Assembly (NCBI GenBank): GCA_963710605.1 | Contig: CAVQBA010000004.1 | Location: 1,088,001-1,152,000 of the forward strand | Source of the DNA: an uncultured cyanobacterium | GTDB taxonomy: Bacteria > Cyanobacteriota > Cyanobacteriia > Cyanobacteriales > Cyanobacteriaceae | DNA length: 64,000 nucleotides | Reading direction: 5' to 3' | Part shown: positions 34,618 through 64,000 of the stretch, one piece after another | Numbering within the stretch: the first letter of the stretch is position 1 | How the letters are laid out: every line of letters begins with the position of its first letter | The notes under the pieces: model-generated | What the model was told of the DNA's origin: nothing | The model's input: the letters and a program-made list of their open reading frames with translations, nothing else | Database searches by the model: none | Program-made: the position numbers and the translations under genes

Positions 34618-34780
34618 TATAGTCATTTCAGTTAAGATTGAGACAGTATTAATAATTGTAAAACTGTGAGTCTTAAACCCACCTTGGGTATGAATTGACA
34701 AGGCTAACAGAATCCGTTTAATAAATTAAACTTTAATTTACTAGCATCGAATTGTCTCATTTTTATTTGAAATAACTATA
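34618..34780 (+). mobile_element. ~163-bp MITE with TATAGT(C/T)ATTTCA inverted ends
   Basis: tatagtcatttca...tgaaataactata; related copies near 8590, 34862-34917, 44323, 55657 and 61830-61991. Confidence 0.75.
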
Positions 34781-44063: not shown

Positions 44064-44504
44064 GTGTAAAAGTTATTAATAATTTTGGATGTGCTTTTGA
44101 GAACAAAAAAAAGAAGCGATTGTCACTTTAAAAATTTAATTTATAGTGATTAACTATAACTACTCTTACAGCTTATAGCTTATAGCTTATAGCAAGAGTG
44201 GTTATAAGGTAAAAAAGTGAGAAAATTTTCCTTACTTAAATTATAGGCTTGTAGTAAGGGCTTTAGCCCTTGTATTCATGAATTATGAGAGTGCTTTTTC
44301 TATTTTAGTCAACTATCGTACTTAACCCGCCTTGAACTATCGTGCAAGGCTAATAGAATTCGTTCATTGTCATGAACTTTTAAATACAACTTAAAAGTTT
44401 GATTTATTATGGTTATTTCAATTGAGTTATAAATCAAAGTAAAATATAGTAGTAAAAGAGTTGTTTTGAACATTTGAATGCAGTTTCCCCTCCTTTGAAG
44501 GAGG

Positions 44505-44548
44505 AGGGGCTGTCATCTGAATTTATTTCAGATGCTTGTAAGCCCCGT
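44505..44548. repeat. ~44-bp hairpin repeat, copy 2, inserted in a REP-like palindrome
   Basis: Interrupts cccctcctttgaaggagg|gggttaggggtggt. Confidence 0.7.
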
Positions 44549-44573
44549 GGGTTAGGGGTGGTAGAGGATATGT

Positions 44574-46710: not shown

Positions 46711-47027
46711 TTTATCATCGAATCGATCGTTGTCAGTTAAAATTATAGCAACACAAAAATAATTGGTTAAGACGTATTTTCTCTGTGTACAACCCCTCGT
46801 GTTTCTCCCCTTATAAAGAGGAGACTTTAATCGATAAATGCGGAAGTAATTGCCTTACTGCTATATTATTACAAACCAAAGAAAACTTGCAACAGTTTAT
46901 GTTAATAAGTCCCCCACTCTCCTACCCCCCTTTTGTAAGGGGGGACTAAGGGAGGATCAAGAAGATGCAAAATAGGCAGAGGGGTCGGGGATTTAGGGGG
47001 ATCTAAATTTAGGGTACTTTTTTAGTC

Positions 47028-48440
47028 TTAATTAACTACAGACAATTCTCTAATATCAGATACCTTACCGTTAATTGCCGCCGCAACCACCATAGCAGGA
47101 CTCATCAATAAAGTACGCCCTTGTGCTGAGCCTTGACGACCTTTAAAGTTACGATTAGAAGAAGATGCACTAATTTGGCTTCCTTGTAACTTATCAGGAT
47201 TCATCGCCAAACACATAGAACAACCAGGCTCTCGCCATTCGAAACCTGCTTCGGTAAAGATGTGATGTAAACCTTCTGCTTCGGCTTGTTTTTTCACTCT
47301 TTCTGAACCCGGCACGATAAAAGCCTTGACATTTTGAGCAACTTGATGTCCTTTAGCAAACTTTGCCGCTTCTCTCAAATCGCTGATTCTGCCATTAGTA
47401 CAACTACCAACAAAGCAAACATCGATCGGTATATCTTTAATTTGAGCACCGGGAGTTAATTGCATATATTCAAAAGCTTGAACGGCAATTTGTTTATCAT
47501 TTTCAGCTAATTTGTCGATAACGGGTAAAGATTCGTTGATACCGATACCTTGTTCTGGTGTAATACCCCATGTAATAGTAGGTTCAATGTCACTGGCATT
47601 GAATGTAACAACATCATCATATTCAGCGGACTCATCGCTACGAATACTTTGCCACCAAGTTACGGCTTTATCCCATGCTTCGCCTTGAGGAGCAAAATCT
47701 CTTCCTTTGAGGTAATCATAAGTGATTTGGTCTGGATTGATATAACCGCATCTTGCCCCACCTTCGATCGACATATTACAAACGGTCATTCTTTCTTCCA
47801 TACTCATCTTGTCAAAGGTTGTACCGCTATATTCATAAGCGTAACCAACACCACCTTTGACTCCTAATTTTCTGATGATATGTAAAATGACATCTTTAGC
47901 ATAAACACCCTCAGGTAAATCGCCATTAACTTCAATTTTTCTGACTTTCAATTTAGCTAAAGAGAGAGTTTGTGAGACTAATACATCTCTTACTTGAGAA
48001 GTACCAATACCAAAAGCGATCGCTCCAAATGCACCATGAGTGGAGGTATGGGAGTCACCACAAGCGATCGTCATCCCCGGTTGAGTTAAACCTTGTTCGG
48101 GGGCAATTACATGGACAATACCTTGATTACCTGAATTGGTATTATAAAATTTGATGCCGTATTCTTGGGTATTATTTTCTAATGCTTGCATCATCTCTTC
48201 TGCTAATGTATCGGCAAAAGGACGAGATTGATCTTCTGTCGGAACGATATGATCTACTGTAGCTACTGTACGTTGAGGATATAATACTTCTAATTTTCGT
48301 TCCCGAATCATCGCAAATGCTTGAGGGCTGGTGACTTCGTGAATCAAATGTAATCCGATAAAAAGTTGAGTTTGTCCTGAAGGTAATGTACCTACTGTAT
48401 GCAAATCCCAGACTTTATCGAATAGTGTTCCTTTACTCAT
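47028..48440 (-). CDS. leuC: 3-isopropylmalate dehydratase large subunit
   Basis: [38 protein letters not shown]. Confidence 0.97.
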
Positions 48441-48629
48441 ATTATTTCAACTTTAAAAATATAATCTATTATCTCTATCGATCGAGCGATCTTTATTATC
48501 TGTTAGAAACGATGATTTAACCAATTATAATAACAAATTATTAACAATTGACGACGGATATTTAATAGTTGATAATTATTTTTCTTTTAGAATATTTAAA
48601 GCGATAATTTGTCAACATATATTTTTAAA

Positions 48630-48860
48630 ATGCCAAACAACAAGTGGAAATTAGAAGGATACGATACCTTCGATCGTGAATCTTATCCTCTCGTAGGTGA
48701 ATTTGAGACAGAAGCAGATGCAATTACGGCGGCTAAGTCTCGTTTAGCTGATTTAGAGCAAACACAACCATCTTCGTCTAGCGGTGGTCAACAAGATGGA
48801 ATTCAAGATCGAGTTTATGTTATTCGACGAGATCAAACAAGATTTAGAGTTATGCCCTAA
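48630..48860 (+). CDS. Small hypothetical protein (cassette cargo)
   Basis: 77-codon ORF; WKLEGYDTFD, GIQDRVY. Confidence 0.6.
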   Translation: MPNNKWKLEGYDTFDRESYPLVGEFETEADAITAAKSRLADLEQTQPSSSSGGQQDGIQDRVYVIRRDQTRFRVMP

Positions 48861-48924
48861 CTCTGAGGAAAATAAAAATGATAGTAATCAACGACATACA
48901 GTTAGCTAACTTATTGTCTAAAAA

Positions 48925-49428
48925 ATGAGCGTCCTTAGTGATATTCAAAAATGGTATGCTTCAAATTGCGACGGTGAATGGGAACACAGTTACGGTATTT
49001 CGATCGATACTCTTGATAATCCAGGTTGGTCTATTACGGTTAATCTTAAAGATACAAATTTGGAAGACAAAAATTTTGAGCCTTTTAAGAACAGGGTTTC
49101 CGAAGATAGATGGATTTCTTGTTTAGTAAAAGACAATAAGTTTAGGGGTGCAGGAGACGAAACGAAACTTGAGGAAATTTTAAAAGTATTTTTAGATTGG
49201 GCAAAAAACATTAACGAAGATTGGTTAAAATCATCGACTCAGCTTTGTGAGGAAGAATTACAATTTTTAGAAGATGCAGAATTTATAAATTTACTTGGCG
49301 AAGAGATTGGTACGGAGCTTTGTAAAAGTGAAGGTTGTATACGTAAACGAATAGAGAATAGTGTAATGTGTCGCCGTCATCATTTTGAAATGGTTAAGGA
49401 GCGTTCATTTCCCGATAGTATCAGCTAA
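48925..49428 (+). CDS. Immunity protein 53 (Imm53)-like with C-terminal Cys/His extension
   Basis: WYASNCDGEWEHSYGISIDTLDNPGW signature. Confidence 0.8.
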   Translation: MSVLSDIQKWYASNCDGEWEHSYGISIDTLDNPGWSITVNLKDTNLEDKNFEPFKNRVSEDRWISCLVKDNKFRGAGDETKLEEILKVFLDWAKNINEDWLKSSTQLCEEELQFLEDAEFINLLGEEIGTELCKSEGCIRKRIENSVMCRRHHFEMVKERSFPDSIS

Positions 49429-49513
49429 CAAGTTAATAGAGGGACTAACAAAACAGCTACTTTGTCAATTTTTAAGATTTACTATGAATGCTTACCTCAA
49501 CTATTATTTATTA

Positions 49514-49616
49514 GTAATTCATTAACTTTTCAACGATCGACCACACTTTAATTAAATGACTTTGTTGCAAACCATTAATCCTCTATAAATATTTAAACTC
49601 TACAACAATCAATCGC
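49514..49616 (-). repeat. Decayed copy A of the glycosyltransferase 3' end
   Basis: acgatcgaccacactttaattaaatgac...aaatatttaaactctac aligns to about 58035-58139. Confidence 0.8.
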
Positions 49617-49741
49617 TCCAATTATATTGACAAAATGTTAGTTATAAAGAGAAGAAGACGGGGTAAATATAATCCAACAAGTGAGATAAAATTAAGCATA
49701 ATGTAAATAAGTATATATCGAACAAATGTCGATCTAGATTC

Positions 49742-50848
49742 ATGAGAGTTGTTCTTACTCAATTTTGCGGTCAAAGAATTTTAAGGTACTGTATTTTGAT
49801 TCGTATAGAAGCTAGTAATGTTTGTACTCAAATTTGGACATTATCTACTTTCGATCCTTACAGAGAAATCTATATTTGGCTGGGAAAAATTCGGGATTCT
49901 CAGCTACCTGCAAGAATGATAATTGATGAGGAAGGTAGAGGAGTAGAACTTTTTGCCGAGAGAATAAACAGTGAATTAGTCAACTTTTATATAAAGCCAT
50001 GGGCTTCTAATAATAACGATCGGACACATCTGAATACTACGCTTAAAAGCGATGAATTAGTAAGTGCTTTTTGCAACGGAATTCTTGAGTTTCTAGGAAA
50101 TAATTACTGTTTACCAGAGTGGTCTAATATTGATAATCTTAGCAACTTGAACTGGAGAGCATTACTTCAGCCTAGAAATCATGCCGATCGCAAATGGGAA
50201 ACACGACTGGCTATTTATCAAGGAAAATATCGTAAAATTCCGAATTCTGAGCGTAAATGTCTGGAGAAATCTTTAACGATAGATCGGCAATGGCTAATTG
50301 TTCTATACTATGCTCTTGAGAAAGTTGCTTTGCTTGGATGTTCTGGGCAGACATACGAATCCTATGGATTTATGAGCCTTTATCAAAATCTTCTTGTGGA
50401 TCTTATTTTAAACGAAATAGATTCAGATTGGTACGAAGAACGAGAGACGGAAATTGAACAAGGGTTTACAGATCTTGTTAAAATATTTAATCGTAGTCGA
50501 AATCCTGAACGCATACGTCTTGAAATTCAGGCTAGGTTATCAACTTTAAAGTTAGGTCAACTTGTTGATGGTAGAGTTTGTCAAATAAAGCCATACGGTG
50601 TATTTGTTGATATCGGAGGACTCCGTGCATTGTTAAGTACCTCTACAATTTCTCAATTGCCGATCGAATCGCCAGATCTGGTTTTTCAAAATGGTGACTG
50701 GGTTAGAGCAATAATTGTATGGATGGATATTGAAAAAAGAAGAGTATTACTTTCAACAAGTGATTTAGAGCCAGAACAAGGTGATATGTTGTGCAATCCC
50801 TTACACGTTTATCAAAGAGCAGAAGAAATGGCAAATAGATATAATTAA
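49742..50848 (+). CDS. Unknown N-terminal domain fused to an S1 RNA-binding domain
   Basis: C-terminal GRVCQIKPYGVFVDIGG...LSTSDLEPEQGDM...AEEMA resembles the last S1 repeat of cyanobacterial ribosomal protein S1. Confidence 0.75.
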   Translation: MRVVLTQFCGQRILRYCILIRIEASNVCTQIWTLSTFDPYREIYIWLGKIRDSQLPARMIIDEEGRGVELFAERINSELVNFYIKPWASNNNDRTHLNTTLKSDELVSAFCNGILEFLGNNYCLPEWSNIDNLSNLNWRALLQPRNHADRKWETRLAIYQGKYRKIPNSERKCLEKSLTIDRQWLIVLYYALEKVALLGCSGQTYESYGFMSLYQNLLVDLILNEIDSDWYEERETEIEQGFTDLVKIFNRSRNPERIRLEIQARLSTLKLGQLVDGRVCQIKPYGVFVDIGGLRALLSTSTISQLPIESPDLVFQNGDWVRAIIVWMDIEKRRVLLSTSDLEPEQGDMLCNPLHVYQRAEEMANRYN

Positions 50849-50958
50849 AATGTACTATCAAGGTTATCAAACAAATAAAGTACGATCGAGTTAAAAACAT
50901 TTGTTGGAAAGTAGTTACAATAAATAAAGTATGTTTTGATAATTTGAGTGAGGTAAGC

Positions 50959-51177
50959 ATGAGTGAGTTACTAGAACGTGCAATTGCTAAGTTGCAAAAC
51001 TTGCCTGAAAGTGAGCAGAACGCCATCGCTTCGATCGTTCTGGAGGAAATTGAAGATGAACGGCGTTGGGATGAGTCATTTTCCAGTTCCCCTGATATTC
51101 TTGCTAAACTCGCCGCTTCGGCAATGGTTGAATATCACGCTGGTGAAACCCAAGAACTTGACTCAGAAAAACTGTGA
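50959..51177 (+). CDS. Putative antitoxin
   Basis: GAGG RBS; acidic; GTGA overlap with the toxin. Confidence 0.7.
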   Translation: MSELLERAIAKLQNLPESEQNAIASIVLEEIEDERRWDESFSSSPDILAKLAASAMVEYHAGETQELDSEKL

Positions 51178-51443
51178 ACTCACGTACTACTGCCCAATTT
51201 CGTAAATTGTTTGCTGATTTACCCAAACAAGCTCAACAGCAAGCCCGTACCGCTTATAGTCAGTTCCAGAAAGATCCTAGCTATCCAAGCCTGCGTTTTA
51301 AAAAAGTTCATCCAGAACTTCCAATCTTTTCTGCTCGCATTAGTAAAAATTACCGAGCGGTTGGTCAGTTAGAGGTAGATACAATGATTTGGTTTTGGAT
51401 TGGTTCGCACGCTGAATACGACAGTTTGTTAAAGCAAATGTAG
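51174..51443 (+). CDS. ParE/RelE-like toxin
   Basis: YPSLRFKKV, SARISKNYRA, WFWIGSHAEY. Confidence 0.8.
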   Translation: MNSRTTAQFRKLFADLPKQAQQQARTAYSQFQKDPSYPSLRFKKVHPELPIFSARISKNYRAVGQLEVDTMIWFWIGSHAEYDSLLKQM

Positions 51444-51459
51444 AAATCCAGCATCATAA

Positions 51460-51697
51460 TTAATTATTCATTAACTTCTGACCGATCGACCATACTTTAA
51501 CCAAATGACCTTGTAACAAAGCCTAATACCCGCAAATATTTAAACCCTACGATATCTGAATCGAGTTTTAAGGTAGTTTGTAAAGCTTTTTCACCTTTTT
51601 CGCTCAAACCAATCATAAAGATCAAGAAAGCTCAAATAAGCGTGATTATAGGCATTGTTTGGATATAAACTAACTAGTTTTTTAGCAGTAGCGATCG
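51460..51697 (-). repeat. Copy B of the glycosyltransferase 3' end (~240 bp) ending at CGATCG
   Basis: Aligns to about 58034-58272 with small indels; ends at CGATCG 51692-51697, matching CGATCG 58267-58272. Confidence 0.92.
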
Positions 51698-51754
51698 ATC
51701 GATTTTTTGTTGTCTAGTCAAGTAAATTTATCAATACATATTTTTAGGATAGTT

Positions 51755-52897
51755 TTAAGCGTCTTGGTCAGTAGGTTTTGGTAGATCGAAGTAAAAAGTA
51801 CTACCTCGACCCAAATCCGACTCAACACCAAGTTTTCCATCATGTTGTTCGACAATTCGCTGACATAATGCTAACCCGATACCGCTACCTTCGGCTCGTT
51901 GTTCGCCCCCTCGGACAAATAGTTGAAAAATTTTCTCTTGCTCTTCAGGCAAAATACCAGGGCCATTATCTGTAAGCCGAACTAGATAGCGATCGTTTTT
52001 TAATTCACAATAAACCATAACAACAGGCGTTGACGTTTGATTATGAACGATGGCGTTTTTAATCAAATTACTCACCAGATTTTCTAATAGTTTAGCATTA
52101 CCTTTTACTATAGGAAGGTTACTCCAATCGATCGAGGCTTGATGGGTATCGATCGTATTTTGCAATCCATTTACCGCTTGCTCGACGACAAGATTCAGAT
52201 CGACAGGTTCAAATTTAAGATTGCGTCGGGATTTAAGTTTGCCATATTCTAATAAGGCGTTTAGCGTTTGGTTCATTTTACGAGAAGTCTGCAAGCCCAT
52301 TTGCACGATTTTTTGGTTACGGCTTTCTAGTTCGCTTTCTTGGAGTAAATCTAAACTAACTGTGACCACGTTAAGCGGGTTACGTAGTTCGTGAGCCACC
52401 GTATGGCTAAAATTTTCTAGCTCTCGATTGCTTTCGTGAAGCCTTTCGAGTGTATCTCGCAGTTGAAACTGACGCTGACGATTGCTCAAACAAACTTGTA
52501 CGATGGAAGTAAATTCATGACGCTGGAGCGGTGTTTCTAACAGGGTGACGCCGCGTTGATGTCGGGCAGATTGTAACATCGTCATACAGGTAGAAAAATG
52601 GCGACAATTTTTGAGTAAAAAAATTAGAGGAATATCAGACCAATCAGGCTGTTTGTTCAAGCACTCCGCTAGTCGATCGAAATTATTGTCGATCGCAAGC
52701 ACTTCTTCGGTAATAATTACCAAGCTGACTTCTGCACGAATAGCAGTTATTACCGTCTCGATCGAATCCGTAGCCATACAGTCTATTTCTTCAATTTCAA
52801 GCAGTTGTCTTACCGCCTTAGCATTGTGAGCCAACTTAGTTGAAATCACAACAGTATCCGCAGAAAGTTGGGAAGAATCGTTAAATTTAGAGATCAT
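51755..52897 (-). CDS. Sensor histidine kinase with a degenerate receiver-like N-terminus
   Basis: AHELRNPL H-box, NLIKNA, DNGPG, GIGL; QPDWSDIPLI. Confidence 0.88.
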   Translation of the reverse strand: MISKFNDSSQLSADTVVISTKLAHNAKAVRQLLEIEEIDCMATDSIETVITAIRAEVSLVIITEEVLAIDNNFDRLAECLNKQPDWSDIPLIFLLKNCRHFSTCMTMLQSARHQRGVTLLETPLQRHEFTSIVQVCLSNRQRQFQLRDTLERLHESNRELENFSHTVAHELRNPLNVVTVSLDLLQESELESRNQKIVQMGLQTSRKMNQTLNALLEYGKLKSRRNLKFEPVDLNLVVEQAVNGLQNTIDTHQASIDWSNLPIVKGNAKLLENLVSNLIKNAIVHNQTSTPVVMVYCELKNDRYLVRLTDNGPGILPEEQEKIFQLFVRGGEQRAEGSGIGLALCQRIVEQHDGKLGVESDLGRGSTFYFDLPKPTDQDA

Positions 52898-54404
52898 TTT
52901 CTATCAATTTTGTCGGTTCGCCAATATATTTAGGAATACCAGAAAGTATGCCCGAAAATTGTTCGAGGGGATCGCCAATATGGATGCCATTCGCATCGAA
53001 CCTAATTTCGCGAATCCCCTTTTCGTGAGCACCGTAGCGTTTTTTGTACACCCCGATCGCTTTATGTATAGCTCCTTTAGCTTCAAAATGCCGTAGTAAC
53101 AATACAGAATCAGCTAAGTAACTAATATCAACACTCCCCTCTAATCGATCGCCAATCACCCCGTGTTGTGCCACCACTAACAGAGTCAAGACATTTTGCC
53201 GATTGAGCATAATTAACAGATCGTGCATTAGGGTGACGAGCTTTTCGTTGCTTGGCATAGAATTAGCGTAGCCCGTCAAGCTATCAATTAAAACAATCTT
53301 AGCTCCCCATTCTTTTACATCCTCATTGATTTGAGCCCTAAATTTACCTGGGTTGCTGTTACTTAAGCCTAATTCACGAATCCGAATTTGGTCTGGATAA
53401 TCCTGCGGATTTAAGCCAATATCAAGTCCTTCAGATCGTTTGAGGAAAGTACTTGCAAGTTCATCAAACAGAAAAACACTAGCTTTTCCACCTTGACTGA
53501 TGAAGTTATGAATAAACAAACTAGCAAGAGTCGTTTTCCCCGTACCAGAAGGCCCAATTAATAAAGATGAAGTTCCCGTAAGTAGATAGCCGCCAATAAG
53601 TTTATCAAAAGAATCGATACCGCTTGACATGGGCTGATAAGATTCTTTATCATCATTAGGAGTCTGAGAAATTAGATGAGGAGCTTGATGCTGAATATGA
53701 TAAATGTTCATACCTTGGCTGGTAATTTCCATATCGTGAATTCCTGACTGAAAATTACTGCCTCGGAGTTTGGATACTTGCAGATACCGGTAATCTTGAC
53801 TGTAAGTAGTCGTCACTCTCGACAGGTTAATTACACCGTGGGCGATGGAAACTAGTTCGCAATCGCCAGGAGCCAGCTTTTGGTCGTCTGTCAACATGAT
53901 GGTGATGTTACGATTGTGCATATAGTCCCGCAGTAATAGTAAATTACGTCGATAAACTAACTTATCATTAGCTAACATCCGTAAATAGGCAATACTGTCA
54001 AATATTACACGTCGGGGCTTTACCGCTTCGATGACTTCTATAAATTGAGTCATTGTTGTTTCTAACTCAAGATCGGAGGTATCGAAAATGGTCTGCTGTT
54101 GTTCTGTTGCTTCTAGTGCTTGTAACTTACCAAATTCTTCAAAAACGATACCATCAGGATCGATACCCACCGAAGTGGCTGTCTGTTTTATGCTTTGTAC
54201 CCTTTGAGATAAGGCAATGCACAATACTTTTTCATCTGCCTCTACTCCCGATCGTAAAAAATGTAATCCCAGAATTGTTTTTCCTGTTCCCGGCTCACCA
54301 TTGACAACATAAATTTCTCCTTCAGGAAGACCGCCACAAATTATGTCATCAAGGGAGGCAATCCCTGTAGAAATTCTTACTAAAGAGCTAGAGGCATCTT
54401 TCAT
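52887..54404 (-). CDS. KaiC-like / RAD55-family double-domain ATPase
   Basis: Two Walker A motifs GEPGTGKT and GPSGTGKT; KLRGS; DISYLAD. Confidence 0.85.
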   Translation of the reverse strand: MKDASSSLVRISTGIASLDDIICGGLPEGEIYVVNGEPGTGKTILGLHFLRSGVEADEKVLCIALSQRVQSIKQTATSVGIDPDGIVFEEFGKLQALEATEQQQTIFDTSDLELETTMTQFIEVIEAVKPRRVIFDSIAYLRMLANDKLVYRRNLLLLRDYMHNRNITIMLTDDQKLAPGDCELVSIAHGVINLSRVTTTYSQDYRYLQVSKLRGSNFQSGIHDMEITSQGMNIYHIQHQAPHLISQTPNDDKESYQPMSSGIDSFDKLIGGYLLTGTSSLLIGPSGTGKTTLASLFIHNFISQGGKASVFLFDELASTFLKRSEGLDIGLNPQDYPDQIRIRELGLSNSNPGKFRAQINEDVKEWGAKIVLIDSLTGYANSMPSNEKLVTLMHDLLIMLNRQNVLTLLVVAQHGVIGDRLEGSVDISYLADSVLLLRHFEAKGAIHKAIGVYKKRYGAHEKGIREIRFDANGIHIGDPLEQFSGILSGIPKYIGEPTKLIENDL

Positions 54405-54644
54405 TAAATAATTGGTTTTTGTTTAATTGAATACTATCTCTACATATATTAACAGAAGTCAAACTAGACTCAGACAAATGTTTGCCGTATTTTTTTTAGA
54501 TACCTTTGTTTGCGGGTATATCGTCGGCAACTAATATTTATCAAAAGTTTGAGCTTTATTAAAAAAATTTGGGCTATTTTCTAAACGATAATGGCTAATA
54601 TCGTTCCGAGGAATATAATATAAGTAAAAACAAGTGACGAGGTA

Positions 54645-55091
54645 ATGGCGAAACTCTACTACCGTGGTATGGCACAGCAAGATGGTAAATCAAAAATAGG
54701 TAGAAGTGCCAGACTATTAGGAATTAGACTTAACATCGATATAAACGTTGAGCAAATACCAATAGGTTATCTTGACAAGCAAGGATATTTGTTACCAGAG
54801 TCATAGCGTCAGATTTCAGAAAAACTAGTAACCGTTGCTATTAAAGAGAATAAGGGAATGTCTGTGTCTTTATCGATCGACAGTTTACCTGCATTTCGTA
54901 AACCTGCCAAATTTGGCGGAAAGGGAAAAGATACTCTTTGGCAAATTGATGACAGCTATATCATAAAAGATTTACAGGCTGTTCAAGATAGCCCGACACA
55001 CGTTAGCATTATGCCAAGAGTTACAATGACTTTAGAAAGGTACGAGACAGCATTGGCAAATACCCAAAATTATTGGCAAAAAGTTGACTAG
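54645..55091 (+). pseudogene. Putative Tse2/ADP-ribosyltransferase-like toxin with an internal TAG
   Basis: MAKLYYRGM...GMSVS...THVSIMP; TAG at 54804-54806; GAGG RBS. Confidence 0.5.
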
Positions 55092-55112
55092 TAAAATATA
55101 CGAAAATAGGAG

Positions 55113-55649
55113 GTGGCAAAAATGGCATGGATATTTAGTTTATCAGCAGAATGTGGTTGCGATCGAATCAACGCAGATAAATTTGCTCAACATTTTGAGG
55201 GAATGTCATTGTTGCTATCAAACGATCGTCAGTACAAATGTCTTACGGACATATTCCAAGACATAGAAGAAAATTGGTGGTGTCGAGTTTTACCAAGTAA
55301 TCTTAGTGAAGTGGGAATAGAAGCCAATGAAAGTGCTTATTTAATGACAGAGTTAGGTATTTCACTTTATCAGTCTCTACGATTTGCGACAACCTTTCGT
55401 TATGCACTAGTTGGTGTTGAAGTGGATGAATTTAGAACTTACAGCGAACTGATTGAAGATTCTGCTAATTTATCTATACCAGGATTAGTTTTGAATAAGA
55501 CACTTGCAATAGATTTAGAAATATTATCAGCTTTTCGAGCCTTTAGTTCTAATTATGTTTGGCAACCTTACGCAGGAGAAATCTACAATCCACTCATGAC
55601 ATACCCAAATTTAAAAAATAAGTTGAATGAATTGTTAGCTGTAATTTAA
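55113..55649 (+). CDS. Hypothetical protein, probable immunity/antitoxin partner
   Basis: AGGAGG RBS; lies immediately downstream of the toxin-like ORF. Confidence 0.6.
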   Translation: MAKMAWIFSLSAECGCDRINADKFAQHFEGMSLLLSNDRQYKCLTDIFQDIEENWWCRVLPSNLSEVGIEANESAYLMTELGISLYQSLRFATTFRYALVGVEVDEFRTYSELIEDSANLSIPGLVLNKTLAIDLEILSAFRAFSSNYVWQPYAGEIYNPLMTYPNLKNKLNELLAVI

Positions 55650-55656
55650 TTTAAGT

Positions 55657-55958
55657 TATAGTTGTTTAAATTAAGTTTTCTTGGTCGGCGTTCGGTGTCT
55701 TGGTGAGCGTTCGGTGTCTTGGTGAGCGTTCGGGTCTTGTCGAGCGTTACGGTGTCTTGTTCGCGTGGTGTCTGGTGAGCATTCGCTTGCGTCTTACGCT
55801 CCTGAGCGGGTTCTCACCGCTTGCGACTTGCCGTATCGAAAGCGGGTCTGACCGTTTGAGACAGTATAAAAATAGTAGAAAAAAACATAAAACCCGCCTT
55901 GCAATCAATTGTCAAGGCTAACAGATACCGTTTAATAAATTAAACTAAAAGAAAATAT
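55657..55958 (+). mobile_element. MITE (34618 family) carrying a nested GC-rich insertion
   Basis: Matches the reverse complement of 61830-61991 once 55679-55853 is removed. Confidence 0.75.
55679..55853. repeat. GC-rich tandem repeat (~19-bp unit gtgtcttggtgagcgttcg)
   Basis: About 5-6 degenerating units; GTTT on both flanks. Confidence 0.75.
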
Positions 55959-55964
55959 AATTGT

Positions 55965-56030
55965 ATTCGGATTATCAGCGCACCAGAGGCAACTAAAAAT
56001 GAGCGGAGGTTTTACGAAGATGGAAAATAA
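55965..56030 (+). pseudogene. C-terminal remnant of a BrnT toxin
   Basis: IRIISAPEATKNERRFYEDGK* overlapping the next gene. Confidence 0.7.
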
Positions 56031-56241
56031 TCATGAGCTAGAAGATGATTTAAGACCTGAATATGACTTTAGCAAGATGCAAGGTGGTATTAGGGGAAAA
56101 TATGTCGATCGCTATCAGGCAGGAACAAACATCGTATTACTCGAAGCTGATGTTGCTCAAGTGTTTGCGACAAGTGACGAGGTTAATAAGGCACTTCGAT
56201 TACTTATGCAAATAGCCCAAAGGCAGAAGCCTAATACCTAA
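56020..56241 (+). CDS. BrnA-like antitoxin
   Basis: DLRPEYDFS..GIRGKY, LEADVAQVF..VNKALR. Confidence 0.7.
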   Translation: MENNHELEDDLRPEYDFSKMQGGIRGKYVDRYQAGTNIVLLEADVAQVFATSDEVNKALRLLMQIAQRQKPNT

Positions 56242-56374
56242 TTATTCATCAACTTTTGACCGATCGACCATACTTTAACTAAATGCCCCTGTAACAAAGC
56301 ACTTATACCTTCTAAATATTTGAACTTTACGACATTTGGATATAAACTAACTCATTTTTTAGTAGTAACGATCG
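56238..56374 (-). repeat. Copy C of the glycosyltransferase 3' end with a 102-nt internal deletion, ending at CGATCG
   Basis: Aligns to about 58036-58137 plus 58240-58272. Confidence 0.92.
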
Positions 56375-56475
56375 ATACCGTAGATGTTGCACGGATATAT
56401 TCAAAAACATAGAAGAAAATTGAATGACTACGCAAGTTAGAATACAAGGGTAATCTTTGAAACGAGGTTAAGCTA

Positions 56476-56751
56476 ATGGTAATTCGAGAGCCACGCTATA
56501 GCAAAGAGGAATTCGCCCAGCGAGGTGATTATCTCTATGAAAATCAGGTAAAACATCAAGTTGAGGCGGGAAATGATGGCAAAATTGTAGCGATCGATAT
56601 CGAAACAGGAGCTTTTGAGGTAGCTGAGACACCGATGGTAGCAGTCGATCGATTGTACGAACGTGAACCCGATGCTCAACCTTGGGTAATTCGGATTGGA
56701 CATCGAGCAGTCTTTCGTTTTGGTAGTCGTAGTCTGAGGAAGCCTGTATGA
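56476..56751 (+). CDS. Small protein typically paired with clan AA proteases (DUF5678-like)
   Basis: GKIVAIDIETG...PDAQPWVIRIG; ATGA overlap with the protease. Confidence 0.65.
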   Translation: MVIREPRYSKEEFAQRGDYLYENQVKHQVEAGNDGKIVAIDIETGAFEVAETPMVAVDRLYEREPDAQPWVIRIGHRAVFRFGSRSLRKPV

Positions 56752-57122
56752 TGTTCGGTGTGGTCAATAATAATTGTGAAGCGGTCGTCAAAGTTGCTGT
56801 AGGGCGTATCGGTTCACCTAAAAGAATCGTTGATGCAGTTATTGATACAGGATTTACTGGCTTTTTGTCTTTACCACTTTCTATGATTAGGGAGCTTGAC
56901 TTGCCTTGGCATTATAGAGATATTGGTACATTAGGCGACGGGAGTGAAGTCGTATTTGAAATCTATAAAGGGGCTGTAATTTGGGATGGTCAGAATAAGA
57001 TTATTGATGTGGCGGCTTCGGATGCAGAGCCACTAGTGGGAATGAGTTTGTTTTATGGGTTTAAGCTTGAAATCGAGGCTGTTGAAGGTGGTATTGTCAC
57101 GATCGAAGCTTTGAATAAGTAG
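56748..57122 (+). CDS. Clan AA (retropepsin-like) aspartic protease
   Basis: AVIDTGFTG catalytic motif; PLVGMSL. Confidence 0.85.
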   Translation: MMFGVVNNNCEAVVKVAVGRIGSPKRIVDAVIDTGFTGFLSLPLSMIRELDLPWHYRDIGTLGDGSEVVFEIYKGAVIWDGQNKIIDVAASDAEPLVGMSLFYGFKLEIEAVEGGIVTIEALNK

Positions 57123-57476
57123 CAAAAGACGATTGGTGAGGCTTAATCTAACCATCATTTAGCGATTGACTACTAATTAAAAATTTTGTTGATGTTGGGT
57201 TTCATGCTTCAACCGTTCCCTACTACTGCACCAGAACTTTTCTCTATCTTGTAAAAACAGTACTATAGATCTCTTTTTCTTTTTCCATCATGAATAATGA
57301 TTTTGAAACTTAACCAAATCAACAACCATTCATTCGTTTTTGTTAAATCTTACGCCTAACTTTATATCAGAAAAAGGAGCAAACATTATCTTGCAATTGT
57401 GGTATCATATGCTCATTGATAGACTATTGTACTGCAATTGTGGTCTAATTATAAGTTGGATGCTCAATAATTAATC

Positions 57477-57800
57477 ATGTTTATTAATCCAATGTGGGAC
57501 ACTGAGAGCCAAAGAATTGGTAAAATGAAATGTTCTCCACTCGCATATAATCTACATATTATTTCGGATTTAATCGGTTTGGTTTCTATGCTTGTATTAT
57601 TTGGAGGCTTTGTATCATTTCTTCATACAAATTGGAAATATTCAATAATATTAATTCTTTACTCTTTTATTTCTGCTTTTCTTGGAAATTTACTTTACAG
57701 ATATTCTTGGAAAATTATAGAGAGGAAAGGTTTTGAATATGATTATGAAAATTGTATTTGTTATTGGTATGAGAATGGAGAAATAAAATCTTACAAATAA
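57477..57800 (+). CDS. Small two-TM hypothetical protein
   Basis: Two hydrophobic segments; RKGFEYDY tail. Confidence 0.6.
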   Translation: MFINPMWDTESQRIGKMKCSPLAYNLHIISDLIGLVSMLVLFGGFVSFLHTNWKYSIILILYSFISAFLGNLLYRYSWKIIERKGFEYDYENCICYWYENGEIKSYK

Positions 57801-57817
57801 ATCTGAAGAAGAATGAT

Positions 57818-57901
57818 AATGACCTTGTAACAAAGCACTAATCCCCTCCAAATATTTAAACTCTACGACATCTGGATCGAGTTTTAAGGCAGGTTGCAAA
57901 G
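57818..57901 (-). repeat. Copy D of the glycosyltransferase 3' region
   Basis: Encodes LQPALKLDPDVVEFKYLEGISALLQGH, identical to the gene, with 4 synonymous changes. Confidence 0.93.
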
Positions 57902-58030
57902 TCCGAACGTCAATCTTGTAGGGTGCGTTTTCTACTGTAACTTATACTACTCTACTGATAAATTTCTGGAAACGCACCACACTTACAAACCTCTAAAAGT
58001 AAGCCGTTACAGTTTAAGCTTAATATTTAA

Positions 58031-60565
58031 TTATGAATTATTGATTAATTTTTGACCGATCGACCATACTTTAACTAAATGCCCCTGTAACAAAGCACTA
58101 ATACCCTCTAAATATTTAAACTCTACGACATCTGGATCGAGTTTTAAGGCAGGTTGCAAAGCTTTTTCGCCTTTTTCGCCATTCCAATCATAAAGATAAA
58201 GAAAGCTCAAGTAACCGTGGTTATAGGCATTGTTTGGATATAAGCTAACTAATTTTTTAGCTGTGACGATCGCAGGTTCTACTTTTTGTTGTAAAACTTG
58301 AGACAATAATAATGTATAAAGATAATCAGAATTATTTTCGGTTTGCAGTCGATGTAGTAAGGTTTTTTCGGTTACTTTTAAATAGGCTTGATCGGGATCG
58401 TATTGATTAATTCTACCAACTGTTGCAAAAACAGGCTCTAACCCTTCTATTCCTTCACCTAAAGCAGGGGCAAGACGATTAATTTCACTGACTAAATCTA
58501 ATTCTCTTTGAGCAACGGGAGAAGTTATATTTTGCTCGACTATAATTTGTGTTGGCGGTATGGTTAAAGGTTTTGTTTTTCCTGTTGTTTTATTTAATAA
58601 TTGTGCTTCTAAAATATAGTTACCGTCGGGTATATTTTCAGGAATAAACATCGCTGTATTTTCGATTACTTGAAAATCTTTATTTAATTCATTTTTAGCT
58701 AAGTTATCAAAATATAAATTACTCATTCCTAAACTGTGGTCATGAGTCCATTTTATCGTTTTATTTTCTGATGAATACCATGTCAATAAAACGATCGTTT
58801 CTTCTAATTCTTGAGCTGTTCCAGTCCATTTATAAGTAATATCAACTGTCTTATTTTGACTTACTTGTGAAGGAAAAATAACCTCATTTAATTCTAAATT
58901 GCTATTAGTTGAATTAAGAGGATTAACAATAGTTTGTAACTGCTGTCTTTGATATAGTTGCAAATAACTTTCGTCGGGTAAAAGCCATTTATCTAGTAAA
59001 CTAAAATCACCACCATTTTCGACTAAATCAACTGTCATTTTCTGTGCGTCGGGAATCGAACCTTGTTCGCCTGTTTTCGTCAGAAACCAATCTAAAGCAT
59101 TGACATCTTGAGGTACTTCTTTTTCTCTTACTCCGACTTGTCTGCCATATACTTGTTGCGAATCGGGAATCGAGCCATAAAAAGAAACGTTTGATTGATT
59201 GATTTTACTAGTAGAGGGCAAAACCCCGATATTCATTCTCAGATAAGGATTAGTTTGTTTTGCTTTTTCGACTAATTCAGGTACAGCCCATTGTTTTCCT
59301 GTATAAGGATAATTTTCCATTTTTGGGCTGAGTTTATTAGTAATAAAACTTCCTCCTAAAGGGAAAAGATTGAGTAACATTAAAATCAAAGCGATCGATA
59401 CTGTTACTATTTTGAACCACTTCTTTTTTTCTCCTCGATAACTATAAATTAAAGCACTAACTATTAAGGTACAAATAGGTAGTAAGGGCAAAATATAACG
59501 AGCATCTTTATTAATATTTAAAGACGATAATAAGTATCCACCTAAGATAAAAGTTATTAACCAGAAAGTAATAGTTTTAATTTTGTTTTCTGGTAGAGTA
59601 TTTTGATAAAAGTTTTTTTGCAAATATAACCAAATATTTTTAGTTTTGACTGAAGAGTTTTTAAAATATTTAATTGCTAAATAGATAAGACAAAAAAGAC
59701 TAACTAATAATAAAAATGAGGATAATAAGTAAGGAGAAACCTCAGCATAAAATGTCCATGCTTTAAGAGTATTTAAACTAGGATCGCCTTCAATGATAGC
59801 AGAATCGATCGTCGCTCTTTTTCCTGAAGTAAAAATGACTAACCAATTAGTACGATACCAAGGATAAAAAAGGATAATTGCTGACAATGACATTAAAATT
59901 ATTTGCCCGACTCTATGCCATTTTCGTTGCCAAATTGAAAAGATACAAACAAAAAGAAAAGGAAAAAAGAGAAAAAAAGCAAATGTTTGTTTGAGTAACA
60001 ATCCTAAACCGAAAGAAATACCTGTTAATAGACTTAGCCACCACGAAGATTTACCTTGACTGAAATACCAATAACTCAGACAAGTAAAACTAAAAGTAAT
60101 CATGACAGTGAGAGGATAATCTAATAAAAATTCTCGCCGAAAATAATATAACCCTGGTATTAAAGGAATTAAGACACAAGCGAGTAAAGCTATTCGTTGG
60201 TTAAAAAATAATTTACCTAGATAAAAAATACTGAAAATTAGTAATAAACTAAAACCCGAAAAAACTAAATTACCGCTACTCAAACTAGGGGGTAAGATAT
60301 GAAAACACAAACCCGTAATGATATAAATCAACGGTGGAATTTTATTTGAAAGTAACCAAAACTCACGCCACGATGATAAATCAAAAATATCGAGATTGAC
60401 TAACCCTTCTTTGTAACCCATCACCCCATTAAGGTAGTCAGCGGGATCCCATGATGGTACGCTATTATCTAAACTAAACCAAACTCGATCGATTATTAAA
60501 CCAATTAGCCAAATCGATATTAGGATTAAAATAGGGTTCGTTTTTTTGATTATATTTGCTGACAT
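58031..60565 (-). CDS. GT39/ArnT-like lipid-carrier glycosyltransferase with C-terminal TPR-like repeats
   Basis: PSWDPADY, KIPPL, LLDYP, LLKQT, KDARYILP; multiple TM helices; TPR-like tail. Confidence 0.85.
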   Translation of the reverse strand: MSANIIKKTNPILILISIWLIGLIIDRVWFSLDNSVPSWDPADYLNGVMGYKEGLVNLDIFDLSSWREFWLLSNKIPPLIYIITGLCFHILPPSLSSGNLVFSGFSLLLIFSIFYLGKLFFNQRIALLACVLIPLIPGLYYFRREFLLDYPLTVMITFSFTCLSYWYFSQGKSSWWLSLLTGISFGLGLLLKQTFAFFLFFPFLFVCIFSIWQRKWHRVGQIILMSLSAIILFYPWYRTNWLVIFTSGKRATIDSAIIEGDPSLNTLKAWTFYAEVSPYLLSSFLLLVSLFCLIYLAIKYFKNSSVKTKNIWLYLQKNFYQNTLPENKIKTITFWLITFILGGYLLSSLNINKDARYILPLLPICTLIVSALIYSYRGEKKKWFKIVTVSIALILMLLNLFPLGGSFITNKLSPKMENYPYTGKQWAVPELVEKAKQTNPYLRMNIGVLPSTSKINQSNVSFYGSIPDSQQVYGRQVGVREKEVPQDVNALDWFLTKTGEQGSIPDAQKMTVDLVENGGDFSLLDKWLLPDESYLQLYQRQQLQTIVNPLNSTNSNLELNEVIFPSQVSQNKTVDITYKWTGTAQELEETIVLLTWYSSENKTIKWTHDHSLGMSNLYFDNLAKNELNKDFQVIENTAMFIPENIPDGNYILEAQLLNKTTGKTKPLTIPPTQIIVEQNITSPVAQRELDLVSEINRLAPALGEGIEGLEPVFATVGRINQYDPDQAYLKVTEKTLLHRLQTENNSDYLYTLLLSQVLQQKVEPAIVTAKKLVSLYPNNAYNHGYLSFLYLYDWNGEKGEKALQPALKLDPDVVEFKYLEGISALLQGHLVKVWSIGQKLINNS

Positions 60566-60593
60566 ATAGAGAGTAGAAAAATATTCATTAATT

Positions 60594-61807
60594 ATGACAA
60601 AAAAAATTGCCATTATTGGGGCAGGAATAGCAGGTTTAACTATCGGTAAGAATTTACAGGCAGAAGGTTTTGAGGTTAATATTTTTGATAAAGGACGGGG
60701 TGTTGGTGGTAGAATGTCCAGCAGAAGAACAAATTGGGGTTATCTTGACCACGGTTGTCAATATTTTACCGCCAAAGATTCTTTATTTGCTAGTTTTATT
60801 CAGGAAAATGACGAACTTGTTCAAGTTTGGCAAGGAAAGTTTGCACGTTGGCAAGATGGTAATTATACACCTTTAGAGATTGCGACAATGAATCTCTCAA
60901 TCCCCTTCAATTCCCCCGTAAATCCCCTTAACCCAATCCCCCCCAGTAACTCAATCCTCCCTCAATCCTCCTTTAGTAAATCAATCCCCCCTCAATCCTC
61001 CTTTAGTAAACCAATCCCCCCAATCCCCCACAACGTAGCAATGCTACGTCTCTACAAAGGGGGGAGGAAAATTTAGATAAATTAAACAAAACAGGTGTAA
61101 CAAGATTAAATAAAAATGTTATTACTCATTCTCGTTACGTGCCGACGAAGGCGATGAATAATCTGTGTAAATCGATCGCTACAACACTTGATGTTAAATT
61201 ACAAACTAGAATTGTCAATCTGACTAAAAATCAGAAGAAATGGACTTTAACTGATGAAAATGCTAATCAATATAGTGGTTATGATTGGTTAATTGTCACT
61301 GCACCACCTGCCCAAACGCAAGATTTGTTAACAAGTCATACTGTCATTGCTGAAGAGATAGCCCAGATAAAAATGCTTCCTAATTTTACTTTGATGTTAA
61401 CTTTAGCTGAGGAGATGAATCTTCCTTTTGATGGCATCGAATTACAACACCCGATTTTAGGTTGGATTGCCGTCAATAATAGCAAACCTTCACGAGGAGA
61501 AAAAACAAGTATTGTGATTCAATCTAACTTTACTTGGGCGACTGATAATCTGGAAAACAATCGAGATACTATTACGCAACAATTACAAAATAGTGCTAGT
61601 GAAATTATGGATATAGATTTGGATAAATGTCTGTATAAATCATTACATTTATGGCGTTATGCAATACCTGCACAGAAGAATGAGGCTGGTTGTTATATCG
61701 ATCGTGAAAATGCGATCGGTGTTTGTGGAGATTGGTGTATCGGCGGTAAAGTAGAAGCGGCTTTTAATAGTGCTAATTTATTAACAGATTCGATCGTCGA
61801 TCGTTAA
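60594..61807 (+). pseudogene. Renalase-like NAD/FAD-dependent oxidoreductase interrupted by a repeat-derived insertion and frameshift
   Basis: IIGAGIAG, GGRMSSRR, DHGCQYF in the 5' part; HLWRYA, GDWCIGGKVEAA in the 3' part; C-rich repeats at about 60890-61070. Confidence 0.8.
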
Positions 61808-61829
61808 GTACAAACTCTAAACATCTGGA

Positions 61830-61991
61830 AATAACTATTAAAATAAGAATGAGATAATTGCAGGATATTTTCTTTGAGTTTAATTTATTAAACGGTATCT
61901 TATTAGCCTTGTCAATTCATTGCAAGGCGGGTTTTAGATTCTTCTTTTTACTGTTATTTATACTCTCTCAAACTTAATTTAAACAACTATA
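61830..61991 (-). mobile_element. MITE (34618 family)
   Basis: Shares aaacccgccttgcaatgaattgacaaggcta core and tatagtt end. Confidence 0.7.
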
Positions 61992-62099
61992 ACTATTAAA
62001 ATGAGGGCTAAAGCCCTGACTACAAACTCTCTTTCTTCCTCTCTTCTCTCTGCGTACTCTGCGTACTCGTCTTGAAAAGTTGTTCATGGGGGAGAGCCA

Positions 62100-62143
62100 A
62101 GGGGCTGACACCTGAATTCATTTCAGGTGCTTGTACGCCCCGT
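62100..62143. repeat. ~44-bp hairpin repeat, copy 3
   Basis: aggggctgacacctgaattcatttcaggtgcttgtacgccccgt, nested in another repeat (gggggagagcc|ccaagacc). Confidence 0.7.
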
Positions 62144-62305
62144 CCAAGACCACACTTTTCGCTGCGGTTAAAATAATAAAGATCGTAAATGTCATAACCC
62201 GAAAATTTTTTTAAAAGAAGAATAAAAAGTTTAGATTTAATTAAGGTGATTATAATTAAAAAATAAACATTAATTATCTAGACTAAGATCGATCGTATTT
62301 TAATT

Positions 62306-62620
62306 ATGGCAACCAAAAAACAATTTACCAGTTTTCAAGATATGCTTGATGGTTCAGATTTACCTGTCTTAGTTGATTTTTATGCTACATGGTGTGGTCC
62401 TTGTCAGATGATGGCTCAAATATTACAACAAGTAGCACAGCAAACAAAAGGAAAAGTATCGATCGTCAAAATAGATACAGATAAATATCCTGAGATAGCA
62501 TCACAAAACCAAATTCAAGCCTTACCAACTTTGGTTGTTTTCAAAAATGGTAAACCTGTAAAACGAATTGAAGGAGTTGTACAAGCACCCCAATTGATTG
62601 CTGATTTACAAAATATCTAA
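62306..62620 (+). CDS. Thioredoxin
   Basis: VDFYATWCGPC. Confidence 0.95.
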   Translation: MATKKQFTSFQDMLDGSDLPVLVDFYATWCGPCQMMAQILQQVAQQTKGKVSIVKIDTDKYPEIASQNQIQALPTLVVFKNGKPVKRIEGVVQAPQLIADLQNI

Positions 62621-62707
62621 TAAACAATTAATAATTGAACATACTTATTTATAATTAACTTTTGAGGTGTTTGCCTCCTAACTTCTAACTTTTGACTTTT
62701 AACTCTT

Positions 62708-63311
62708 ATGGATACATTCTCAGCAATCAAAGAAAGACGATCGGTTAAACATTATGATTCTAGTCATCAAATGACTGATCAAGAAATTAAAGACTTGATG
62801 GGATATACTCTTTTATCTCCTACCTCTTTTAATATGCAAAATTGGCGTTTTTTGGTAGTGAAAGACCAAGAAATAAAAGATCAACTAAAAGCGGCTTCTT
62901 GGAATCAATCTCAAGTAGGTGATGCATCGATCGTAATTTTGCTTTGTGGTGATTTAAACTCATGGGCAAAAGAGCCACAAAGATACTTGGCGTAATACCC
63001 CAGAAAAAGTTCAATCGCAAATGGTGCCAATGATTGGCGGTTTCTATAAAGAGAACGAACAATTACAAAGAGATGAAGCAATGCGATCGGTAGGTATGGC
63101 AGGGCAAACTATTATGTTAGCGGCTAAGGCAATGGATTATGATACTTGTGCAATGATTGGTTTTGATCCTAAAAAGGTAGCCCAGATAGTTAATTTACCT
63201 GATGATTACGTTTTAGGGATGATGATTGTGGTGGGTAAGGCGGCTCAACCTGCGAATCCTCGCTCTGGGCAATTAGATATGTCTGAGGTTGTTTCTTTTG
63301 ATAAATTTTAA
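62708..63311 (+). CDS. Nitroreductase family protein (frameshift near 62987)
   Basis: RRSVK, SPTSFNMQNWRF; continues RYWRNTPEKVQSQMVPMI...CAMIGFD. Confidence 0.85.
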
Positions 63312-63419
63312 TGCTTGATTGATTAGTTTTAATTAAAACGTTTTTTAAACAACCTTTGTTTTTAATTGTGTTTAGGGCAATTAGATATTATATTAAGGAT
63401 AAAAACTATAGTTCGATTT

Positions 63420-63878
63420 ATGCGGAAGAAAGAATTTAGATTAGGGGAAATGTTTAAAGATTGAAATTTTCTAAAGGTTATTCATATCACGGAAAATATA
63501 GTTTCTAAAATACTATCGATCGCCCTTGTAATAATTATATTCGTTTCTATTTTTGAATTAGTAATCGTATTAGCACGAGATTTATTGACGATTGAACCAT
63601 CTGGTTTTTTTAATATTACTTTGATTGAGATTTTTGGTTTTTTCCTTAATATTTTAATTGCCTTAGAACTACTAGAAAATATCACAGTTTACCTTAAAAA
63701 ACATATAGTTCAATTGGAATTAGTTTTGACAACTGCTTTGATAGCTGTAGCTAGAAAAATTATTATTTTTGATACTAATAAGTACGAAAAAATGGATTTA
63801 ATTGCTTTAGGTGTTGCCACAATTTGTTTAGCGGCAAGTTATTGGTTAGTTCGTTATAGTCATCAGAAAAAACCTTAA
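63420..63878 (+). CDS. Phosphate-starvation-inducible PsiE family protein (in-frame TGA at 63462-63464)
   Basis: LIALELLENI, TALIAVARKIII; upstream in-frame hydrophobic segment. Confidence 0.7.
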
Positions 63879-64000
63879 AAGTAAAAAGTGGAAAGTATTG
63901 ATTATCAATTATCAATTGCTATGTATTTTTCAAGAATATTTAATACTTGTGTACGATTAAAAGGTTTTAAAATGTAGTCTGTCGCACCAAGACTATAACT

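Follow-up and report, generated by a model that had tools for sequence, protein, structure and literature searches.

Four relics of a GT39 gene end point to stepwise growth of a flexible island in an uncultured cyanobacterium

Introduction

Downstream of a GT39-family glycosyltransferase gene, the genome of an uncultured cyanobacterium carries an 84-base copy of that gene's own end, and the copy differs from the gene at synonymous sites only. What kind of event leaves such a fragment behind, does its silent divergence mark it as an allele of other origin, and is the copy or the end now in use the newcomer? Here, we analysed the window around the copy (the whole stretch of DNA, 64,000 nucleotides long, whose numbering is used throughout) together with the rest of the assembly, related genomes and one public sequencing run.

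Results

All copies of the gene end lie between the GT39 gene and leuC

The live gene gave Pfam matches to PMT (1.6e-14) and PMT_2 (5.1e-12), and its residues 600-860 are 57-61% identical to homologues named GT39 in Geminocystis and Cyanobacterium; over the same residues protein P0001 is 95% identical to it and has the same C-terminal residues. A search of the 3.93-Mb assembly with the last 260 bases of the gene returned six matches, all of them in the window, which local alignment resolved into the live end and four relics; the five gene-end copies of the assembly are thus all found here (Table 1). The relics, called B, A, D and E in order of their distance from the gene, all lie downstream of the live gene and in its orientation, within the 9.6-kb interval from leuC to GT39, which holds them with accessory genes in between. 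The initial annotation of the window had described relic B and missed the three older copies.

Table 1. Positions of the live gene end, its relics, the segments between them and similar loci elsewhere in the genome (a contig is named where the position lies outside the window numbering).
Feature	Position (strand)	Content or matching part of the live gene	Remark
Live gene	58031..60613 (-)	860-aa GT39/PMT-family glycosyltransferase, TPR-like part C-terminal	From the ORF list
Sequence copied in the relics	58030-58292 (-)	Final 263 bases of the live gene	
Spacer, live stop codon to relic B	57902..58030 (-)	129 bases	Unique in the genome
Relic B	57818..57901 (-)	Gene 58078-58161, 80/84 bases identical, no gap	Truncated at each end
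Cassette between relics A and B	56375..57817 (+)	ORFs of 91 aa (56476-56751), 124 aa (56748-57122) and 107 aa (57477-57800)	
Relic A	56240..56374 (-)	56240-56341 matches gene 58036-58137 (94/102); 56335-56374 matches gene 58233-58272 (88%)	
Cassette between relics D and A	51714..56239 (.)	Histidine kinase 51755-52897 (-); KaiC-like ATPase 52887-54404 (-); putative Tse2-like toxin gene in two pieces, 54645-54806 and 54858-55091 (+); 178-aa ORF 55113-55649 (+); dispersed repeat 55654-55961; 80-aa ORF 55999-56241 (+)	Kinase and ATPase from Pfam; toxin from Pfam, second piece only
Relic D	51456..51713 (-)	Gene 58030-58292, 86-88% identical	Single-base gaps
Cassette between relics E and D	49608..51455 (+)	368-aa protein 49742-50848; 77-aa ORF 50944-51177; ParE-like toxin 51174-51443	
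Relic E	49504..49607 (-)	Gene 58027-58130, 83/104 identical	Several in-frame stops
Innermost segment	48441..49503 (+)	83-aa ORF 48609-48860; Imm53 immunity-family protein 48925-49428	Imm53: Pfam 3.2e-33
leuC	47028-48440 (-)	Core gene, far border of the island	Pfam Aconitase 1.4e-171
Displaced 3' ends of three other genes	C2:201575-201827 / 204420-204667; C4:901667-902213 / 899778-900323; C6:129215-129806 / 134213-134803		
Candidate displaced 5' ends, examples	C1:291141-291449 / 292611-292919; C5:300157-300397 / 303044-303287; C7:167846-168199 / 174792-175145		

Relic B and its four synonymous differences

The match of relic B to the gene has E-values of 4.7e-32 (whole-assembly search) and 1e-30 and is therefore not due to chance. 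It comprises 27 complete codons of the live gene (58159-58079 on the minus strand, peptide LQPALKLDPDVVEFKYLEGISALLQGH) with a partial codon on each side. Four differences were found (live gene/copy): TTA/TTG at 58109, GGT/GGG at 58103, CAG/CAA at 58085 and GGG/GGT at 58082. The initial annotation had counted four third-position, synonymous changes over 27 codons, and this count was exact, all four being found again. If mutations fell at random, four synonymous changes out of four would have a probability of 0.002 with uniform rates and 0.004 with transitions weighted twofold, and four third positions one of 0.012. With n = 4 this bias is suggestive rather than strong, and a fairer null would probably be milder, since the live gene, on which selection acts, accumulates half of the divergence. 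All four differences lie within the 32 bases nearest the stop of the gene, and the remaining 52 bases are identical (P = 0.021 for a pre-named block of 32 bases).

Relic B does not include the last 15 codons of the gene and continues into the antisense of the 107-aa ORF. Either the gene once had a foreign 42-residue tail at this point, or the 15 codons were lost in a later trimming deletion like the one inside relic A. A 69-aa ORF at 57690-57899 consists of relic B and, beyond it, antisense sequence of the adjacent gene; this frame and similar ones should not be annotated as genes. From relic B to the live copy the net insert amounts to 260 bases. The spacer behind the live stop codon was considered as a small hairpin mobile element and rejected as such: it has no other genomic copy and no terminator-like site, and it folds no better than shuffled sequences (z = +0.90, 165/200 shuffles folding equally well).

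Three older relics with graded decay

Relic A carries an in-frame TGA and an internal deletion of 95 bases between two ATCCA motifs. In relics A, D and E the stop lies one codon before that of the live gene, with Met replacing Ile, and all three end a few bases from the stop codon (58027-58036) with different genes next to them; B ends at 58078. On the gene side the edges of the relics differ, lying at 58130 (E), 58292 (D), 58272 (A) and 58161 (B). Identity to the live end drops with distance from it, being 95, 92, 88 and 80% for B, A, D and E, and the differences private to one relic rise in the same order, from 1/84 in B to 8/142 in A, 20/252 in D and 14/97 in E (1.2, 5.6, 7.9 and 14.4%). 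Judged by this decay, B appears to be the youngest of the four relics and E the oldest, an order that insertion of each new piece directly beside the gene would produce. We also considered the relics as silent cassettes that vary the tail of the protein; this was rejected, as they encode the same peptide or carry stops.

Accessory genes of the island

The cargo between the relics is mixed, with a ParE-like pair, a kinase together with a KaiC-like ATPase, Imm53 and others, and it has no second copy in the genome save a dispersed repeat and one paralogue of 76%. The genes between leuC and relic E are, from their position, presumably the earliest neighbours of the gene end. In the cassette between E and D, for which NCBIfam was also run, Pfam matched S1 (3e-12) in the C-terminal part of 49742-50848 and ParE_like (5e-12). 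The final 106 residues of this 368-aa protein resemble positions 187-292 of the 318 of a cyanobacterial ribosomal protein S1 model (2.2e-27, a match far below the cut-off), and its residues 1-260 gave no match at all.

In the cassette between D and A, ORF 54858-55091 resembles the C-terminal half of the Tse2 ADP-ribosyltransferase toxin family (3.3e-11) and ORF 54645-54806 has no match; as adjacent small ORFs, the two may be one broken gene, and the 178-aa ORF behind them could be the immunity gene of the Tse2-like toxin. The dispersed repeat in this cassette belongs to a family of about 100 bases that also occurs at 61865-61973 and 34638-34732 and has more than 100 genomic copies on all contigs (75-93% identity). 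It looks like a miniature mobile element, with one copy within the island. Pfam gave no match for the three ORFs between A and B; the 124-aa ORF is clan AA aspartic-protease-like, by a TIGR03698 match (7.4e-14) below the cut-off of the model. This cassette opens with a 56-base fragment (56367-56422) that abuts relic A and is 77% identical to an inner part of ORF 55113-55649. PADLOC, run on the cassettes, reported no defence system and only weak ATPase-type matches to the KaiC-like protein, and the base composition has no sharp edge at the island.

Recombinases were searched for in six frames: the tyrosine recombinase family PF00589 has eight matches in the genome and none in the window, and the serine recombinase family PF00239 has one, outside the window. 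Pfam found no recombinase domain among the 17 ORFs scanned, ARAGORN no tRNA or tmRNA gene in 44000-64000, and Rfam no match in 47000-61500. The genome encodes ComEC (5.2e-54, an open frame of 719 aa) and DprA (2.5e-77); of 14 control genomes, 10 and 11 match these families as well, which gives their presence here little weight.

Some observations concern the surroundings of the island. Divergent from the GT39 gene lies an ORF for an FAD/NAD-binding oxidoreductase (60594-61076), which at 160 aa may be truncated and ends in a 30-base tandem repeat (60945-61000). About 6 kb beyond leuC, outside the island, is a 404-aa ORF (41503-42717) whose translation, inspected by eye, resembles a TnpB of the IS200/IS605 type. 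Two core-looking genes appear split, one at 42808-44063 and one at 44574-46710 (overlapping ORFs 45520-46710 and 44574-45578 on one strand); the first pair presumably encodes S-adenosylmethionine synthetase. The splits may be assembly frameshift errors. With such apparent frame breaks nearby, the single-base gaps in the relics, as in D, may likewise be sequencing errors; the substitution counts are independent of gaps.

Shared differences favour third codon positions, private ones do not

Across the four relics, 52 unique sites vary against the live gene and 23 of them are third positions (p = 0.066), so that the bias towards synonymous sites, which the initial annotation had proposed to test over all copies together, is not significant in the pooled set. 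The pooled sites are a mixture, and the third-position signal lies entirely in the shared ones. Nine sites are shared by at least two relics, and eight of these are third positions; the ninth lies in a codon that is a stop in D and E (and also A) and serine in the live gene. By codon position, the 43 private sites divide as 18/10/15 (p = 0.47). The concentration of shared sites at third positions, next to unbiased private ones, suggests that the former represent allelic variation filtered by selection and the latter neutral decay.

The shared states alternate along the stack. At 58085/58082, relics E, D and B read CAA-GGT, and relic A and the live gene read CAG-GGG; at 58103, GGG is found in E and B only and GGT in the others; and at 58106, GAA is found in A only. 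One lineage mutating in place would need repeated reversals to produce this alternation, which together with the stacking order suggests that the live end switched haplotype several times. Gene conversion between A and the live gene, which are identical over 58050-58099, combined with one parallel change could mimic the same pattern.

Of the four variants of relic B, three are found again further down the stack (those at 58085 and 58082 in both D and E, that at 58103 in E), and only 58109 is private. Its variants are thus allele-like rather than random decay, and the initial reading of the copy as a displaced orthologous gene end is supported. The further proposal that the copy is a foreign allele is partly supported, by this allele-like character; as to direction, either B or the live end may be the immigrant. 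Since relic B has the haplotype of the older relics, it may be the previous resident end and the live end the newcomer.

Relic variants in a related strain, and searches among relatives

Related DNA was found in one public run, X1 (word share 0.07), in which most cassettes are uncovered; with this coverage, its assembled contigs gave no joint at the repeats. A 787-base contig of X1 aligns to 58063-58728 with 36 differences, 29 of them listed, and 25 of the 29 listed are third positions. Several relic variants are live in this strain: that of A at 58106, those of A and D at 58244 and 58265, and that of D at 58252. They make up four of the seven listed differences in the range covered by the relics, and a fifth falls on 58262, a site that varies in the relics, with another base. 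Relic variants therefore exist as live alleles in a related population.

The distribution of differences along the contig is uneven: none is listed in 58107-58225 and 28 are in the next 337 bases (8.3%; P = 3e-5 for the gap). The match ends at 58063, within the last 11 codons of the gene, and the remaining 121 bases of the contig fit nowhere in 47000-61500; the X1 strain seems to have yet another tail or neighbour at this gene end. The difference-free tract and the end of the match at 58063 point to the gene end as a recombination zone. At the sites of relic B, X1 has the live state at 58109, and the other three sites fall within the last 43 aligned bases, beyond the listed part, where the seven unlisted differences may lie. 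A live allele with the four variants of relic B was found neither among the listed differences of X1 nor in metagenome_contigs or genome_contigs.

In metagenome_contigs, a pattern with N at each third codon position gave no match; a protein query with the last 200 residues produced 457 pattern matches there and the whole protein 20 in genome_contigs, and not one of these was confirmed. Neither collection, in which records of this genome or a very close one may be missing, yielded a donor sequence or a strain with a shorter array. The same-genus genome G001 (67% complete) gave only a paralogue of 33% identity. The gene end is present in 9 of 40 other genomes, in one copy each and at 70-75% identity, and the nine regions downstream of it in these related genera (up to 20 kb, two of them shorter where the contig ended) contain no gene-end relic; two repeats that were found in relatives (L021 and L024) lie past the stop codon. 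These regions thus give no sign of the hot spot, and with leuC outside all nine of them, synteny gives no ancestral state.

Similar scars at other genes of the same genome

A genome-wide screen for direct repeats revealed a like arrangement at three other genes (an OmpR-type regulator, a GGDEF sensor and an enolase-superfamily enzyme): a second copy of the 3' end lies 1.9-5 kb downstream, beyond inserted DNA, and the repeats are 90-93% identical. Third positions account for 14/20, 22/44 and 19/34 of the differences at the three loci. The insert on C6 carries a DUF4379 protein and a helicase-methyltransferase. The mirror screen gave eight candidates for displaced 5' ends upstream of their genes, identified at the level of the screen only, and some of these have an excess of third-position differences (12/21, 9/12). 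None of the three 3'-end loci or the eight candidate 5'-end loci is near any of the eight integrase matches of the genome. That many genes would be affected, and at either end, agrees with host homologous recombination that uses the gene as its anchor.

Discussion

The origin of the four relics is, in our view, probably a series of insertions anchored by homology in the end of the GT39 gene and carried out by a host homologous route. The 9.6-kb flexible island between the GT39 gene and leuC would then have grown by four or more steps. In each of them, DNA with a working gene end and new accessory genes, which may have come from related strains, would have recombined with the resident gene within its last 84-263 bases; the gene would have kept an intact end, and the previous end, pushed downstream and released from selection, would have decayed. 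One side may have been joined by host homologous recombination, and the other either by an illegitimate joint, as in homology-facilitated illegitimate recombination, or through Campbell-type integration, one crossover with a circularised fragment. The initial annotation had invoked transformation-driven allele replacement; what the relics demonstrate, as far as sequence can, is additive insertion that retained the previous end, four times over, with an allele change at the anchor. The bias of the shared sites, the haplotype alternation and the live alleles of X1 together suggest that the gene end was repeatedly replaced by other alleles as cassettes were added. Against this account weigh the non-significant pooled third-position test, the searches that turned up neither a donor nor a shorter array, the nine downstream regions of related genera free of relics and the 15 codons missing from relic B.

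Direct repeats of a gene end on either side of each insert would also be left by site-specific integration, in which case the cassettes would be decayed or cargo-only elements with an attachment site that mimics the 3' end of the gene, and the recombinase would be encoded elsewhere or lost. The stop-codon ends of three of the four relics would suit an attP that restores its target gene, the analogous icd/icdC locus has the same signature, stacked elements with partial target copies and degenerated remnants are reported for tycheposons in 10.1101/2020.12.28.424599, and the genome does have eight tyrosine-recombinase matches elsewhere. We nevertheless consider this account unlikely: neither the window in six frames nor the 17 ORFs contain a recombinase or a remnant of one, the gene-side edges of the relics differ, so that no common core is evident, and the same scar at three 3'-end and eight candidate 5'-end loci, in unrelated genes and with no integrase nearby, fits a general process. 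An assembly artefact, with strain variants of one gene end stitched in tandem, is hardly credible. The assembly has seven contigs and a marker completeness of 84.9%, and neighbouring core genes appear split into two frames, but every relic is flanked by unique sequence with intact genes and is truncated at points of its own, and the relics show graded decay including in-frame stops, which the stitching of coexisting strain variants would not yield.

It is also conceivable that each insertion copied the resident end without any foreign allele, the live copy then changing synonymously and the relics drifting. For relic B alone this would work: its single private change falls at a third position by chance in one case out of three, and the other three differences, which are found in older relics, can be changes of the live lineage that selection restricted to synonymous sites. 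The private differences, with no codon bias, agree with it as well. Relic A, which is older than B by both position and private decay, agrees with the live gene at 58103, 58085 and 58082, and at 58106 it has a variant that X1 carries in its live gene; gene conversion and parallel changes would be required to accommodate these, which makes duplication in place rather improbable. Since the cassettes have no other copy in the genome, their DNA would have been imported in any case.

The scar left by the serial insertion that we favour is of a known kind. Where prophage e14 or phage 21 occupies the 3' end of icd in E. coli, the working 3' end of the live gene likewise comes from the inserted DNA and the old end lies dead on the far side, as the pseudogene icdC. 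Between icd and icdC of E. coli K-12 across e14 (NC_000913), 12/165 bases differ, 11 of them at third positions and 10 synonymously. The icd/icdC locus is described in PMC13626634, which cites Hill et al. 1989. Whereas e14 is one prophage of 15 kb with intE and xisE, the island stacks four relics, its inserts measure 0.26-4.5 kb and no recombinase lies in it. The displacement arrays of Rhs, CDI and T6SS loci are similar in that modules recombine in a conserved part and drive the old 3' end downstream, so that a stack in order of age arises with no integrase involved. Arrays of this type were reportedly the subject of work by Jackson et al. in 2009. Their displaced ends are different toxin tips, each with an immunity gene, whereas the ends in the GT39 array encode the same glycosyltransferase peptide and variation lies in the cargo that follows the gene. 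For T6SS immunity arrays, Kirchberger et al. 2017 (PMC5361080) propose homology-facilitated illegitimate recombination, in which one homologous anchor lets non-homologous DNA be added (PMC3240628, PMC5361080). That is an experimentally defined process, whereas for the GT39 island the illegitimate joint and the uptake of DNA by transformation are putative. The tycheposon islands of Prochlorococcus (10.1101/2020.12.28.424599) share repeated integration at one site, with newer elements pushing older ones inwards and leaving partial target copies; as described there, they use tRNA or tmRNA targets and tyrosine recombinases, and the GT39 island has neither. The GT39 scar therefore works like those of e14, Rhs/T6SS loci and tycheposons, without the recombinase, toxin tips or tRNA target that define them.

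Scars of this type have been described before, so the locus is an instructive example and not a new principle. It stands out by how deep its stack is and how cleanly shared and private differences separate. It offers an exceptionally clear view of island growth: four ordered layers lie between the core genes leuC and GT39, the decay of each relic gives the relative age of its layer, and from the shared variants one can read which anchor allele was in use at that stage. It helps to separate selection-filtered allelic variation from pseudogene decay, two things that are often confused, and it illustrates that accessory genes for toxin-antitoxin, immunity and signalling functions can stack without a visible integrase. 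More tentatively, it is possible that this lineage builds its flexible islands largely without integrases, from imported DNA that is anchored at the 3' or 5' end of a core gene and added rather than swapped, each addition leaving a relic. If this were true, one genome would hold at least four such 3'-end loci and about eight candidate 5'-end loci, and from such stacks acquisitions, together with allele turnover in the anchor genes, could be read and dated layer by layer.
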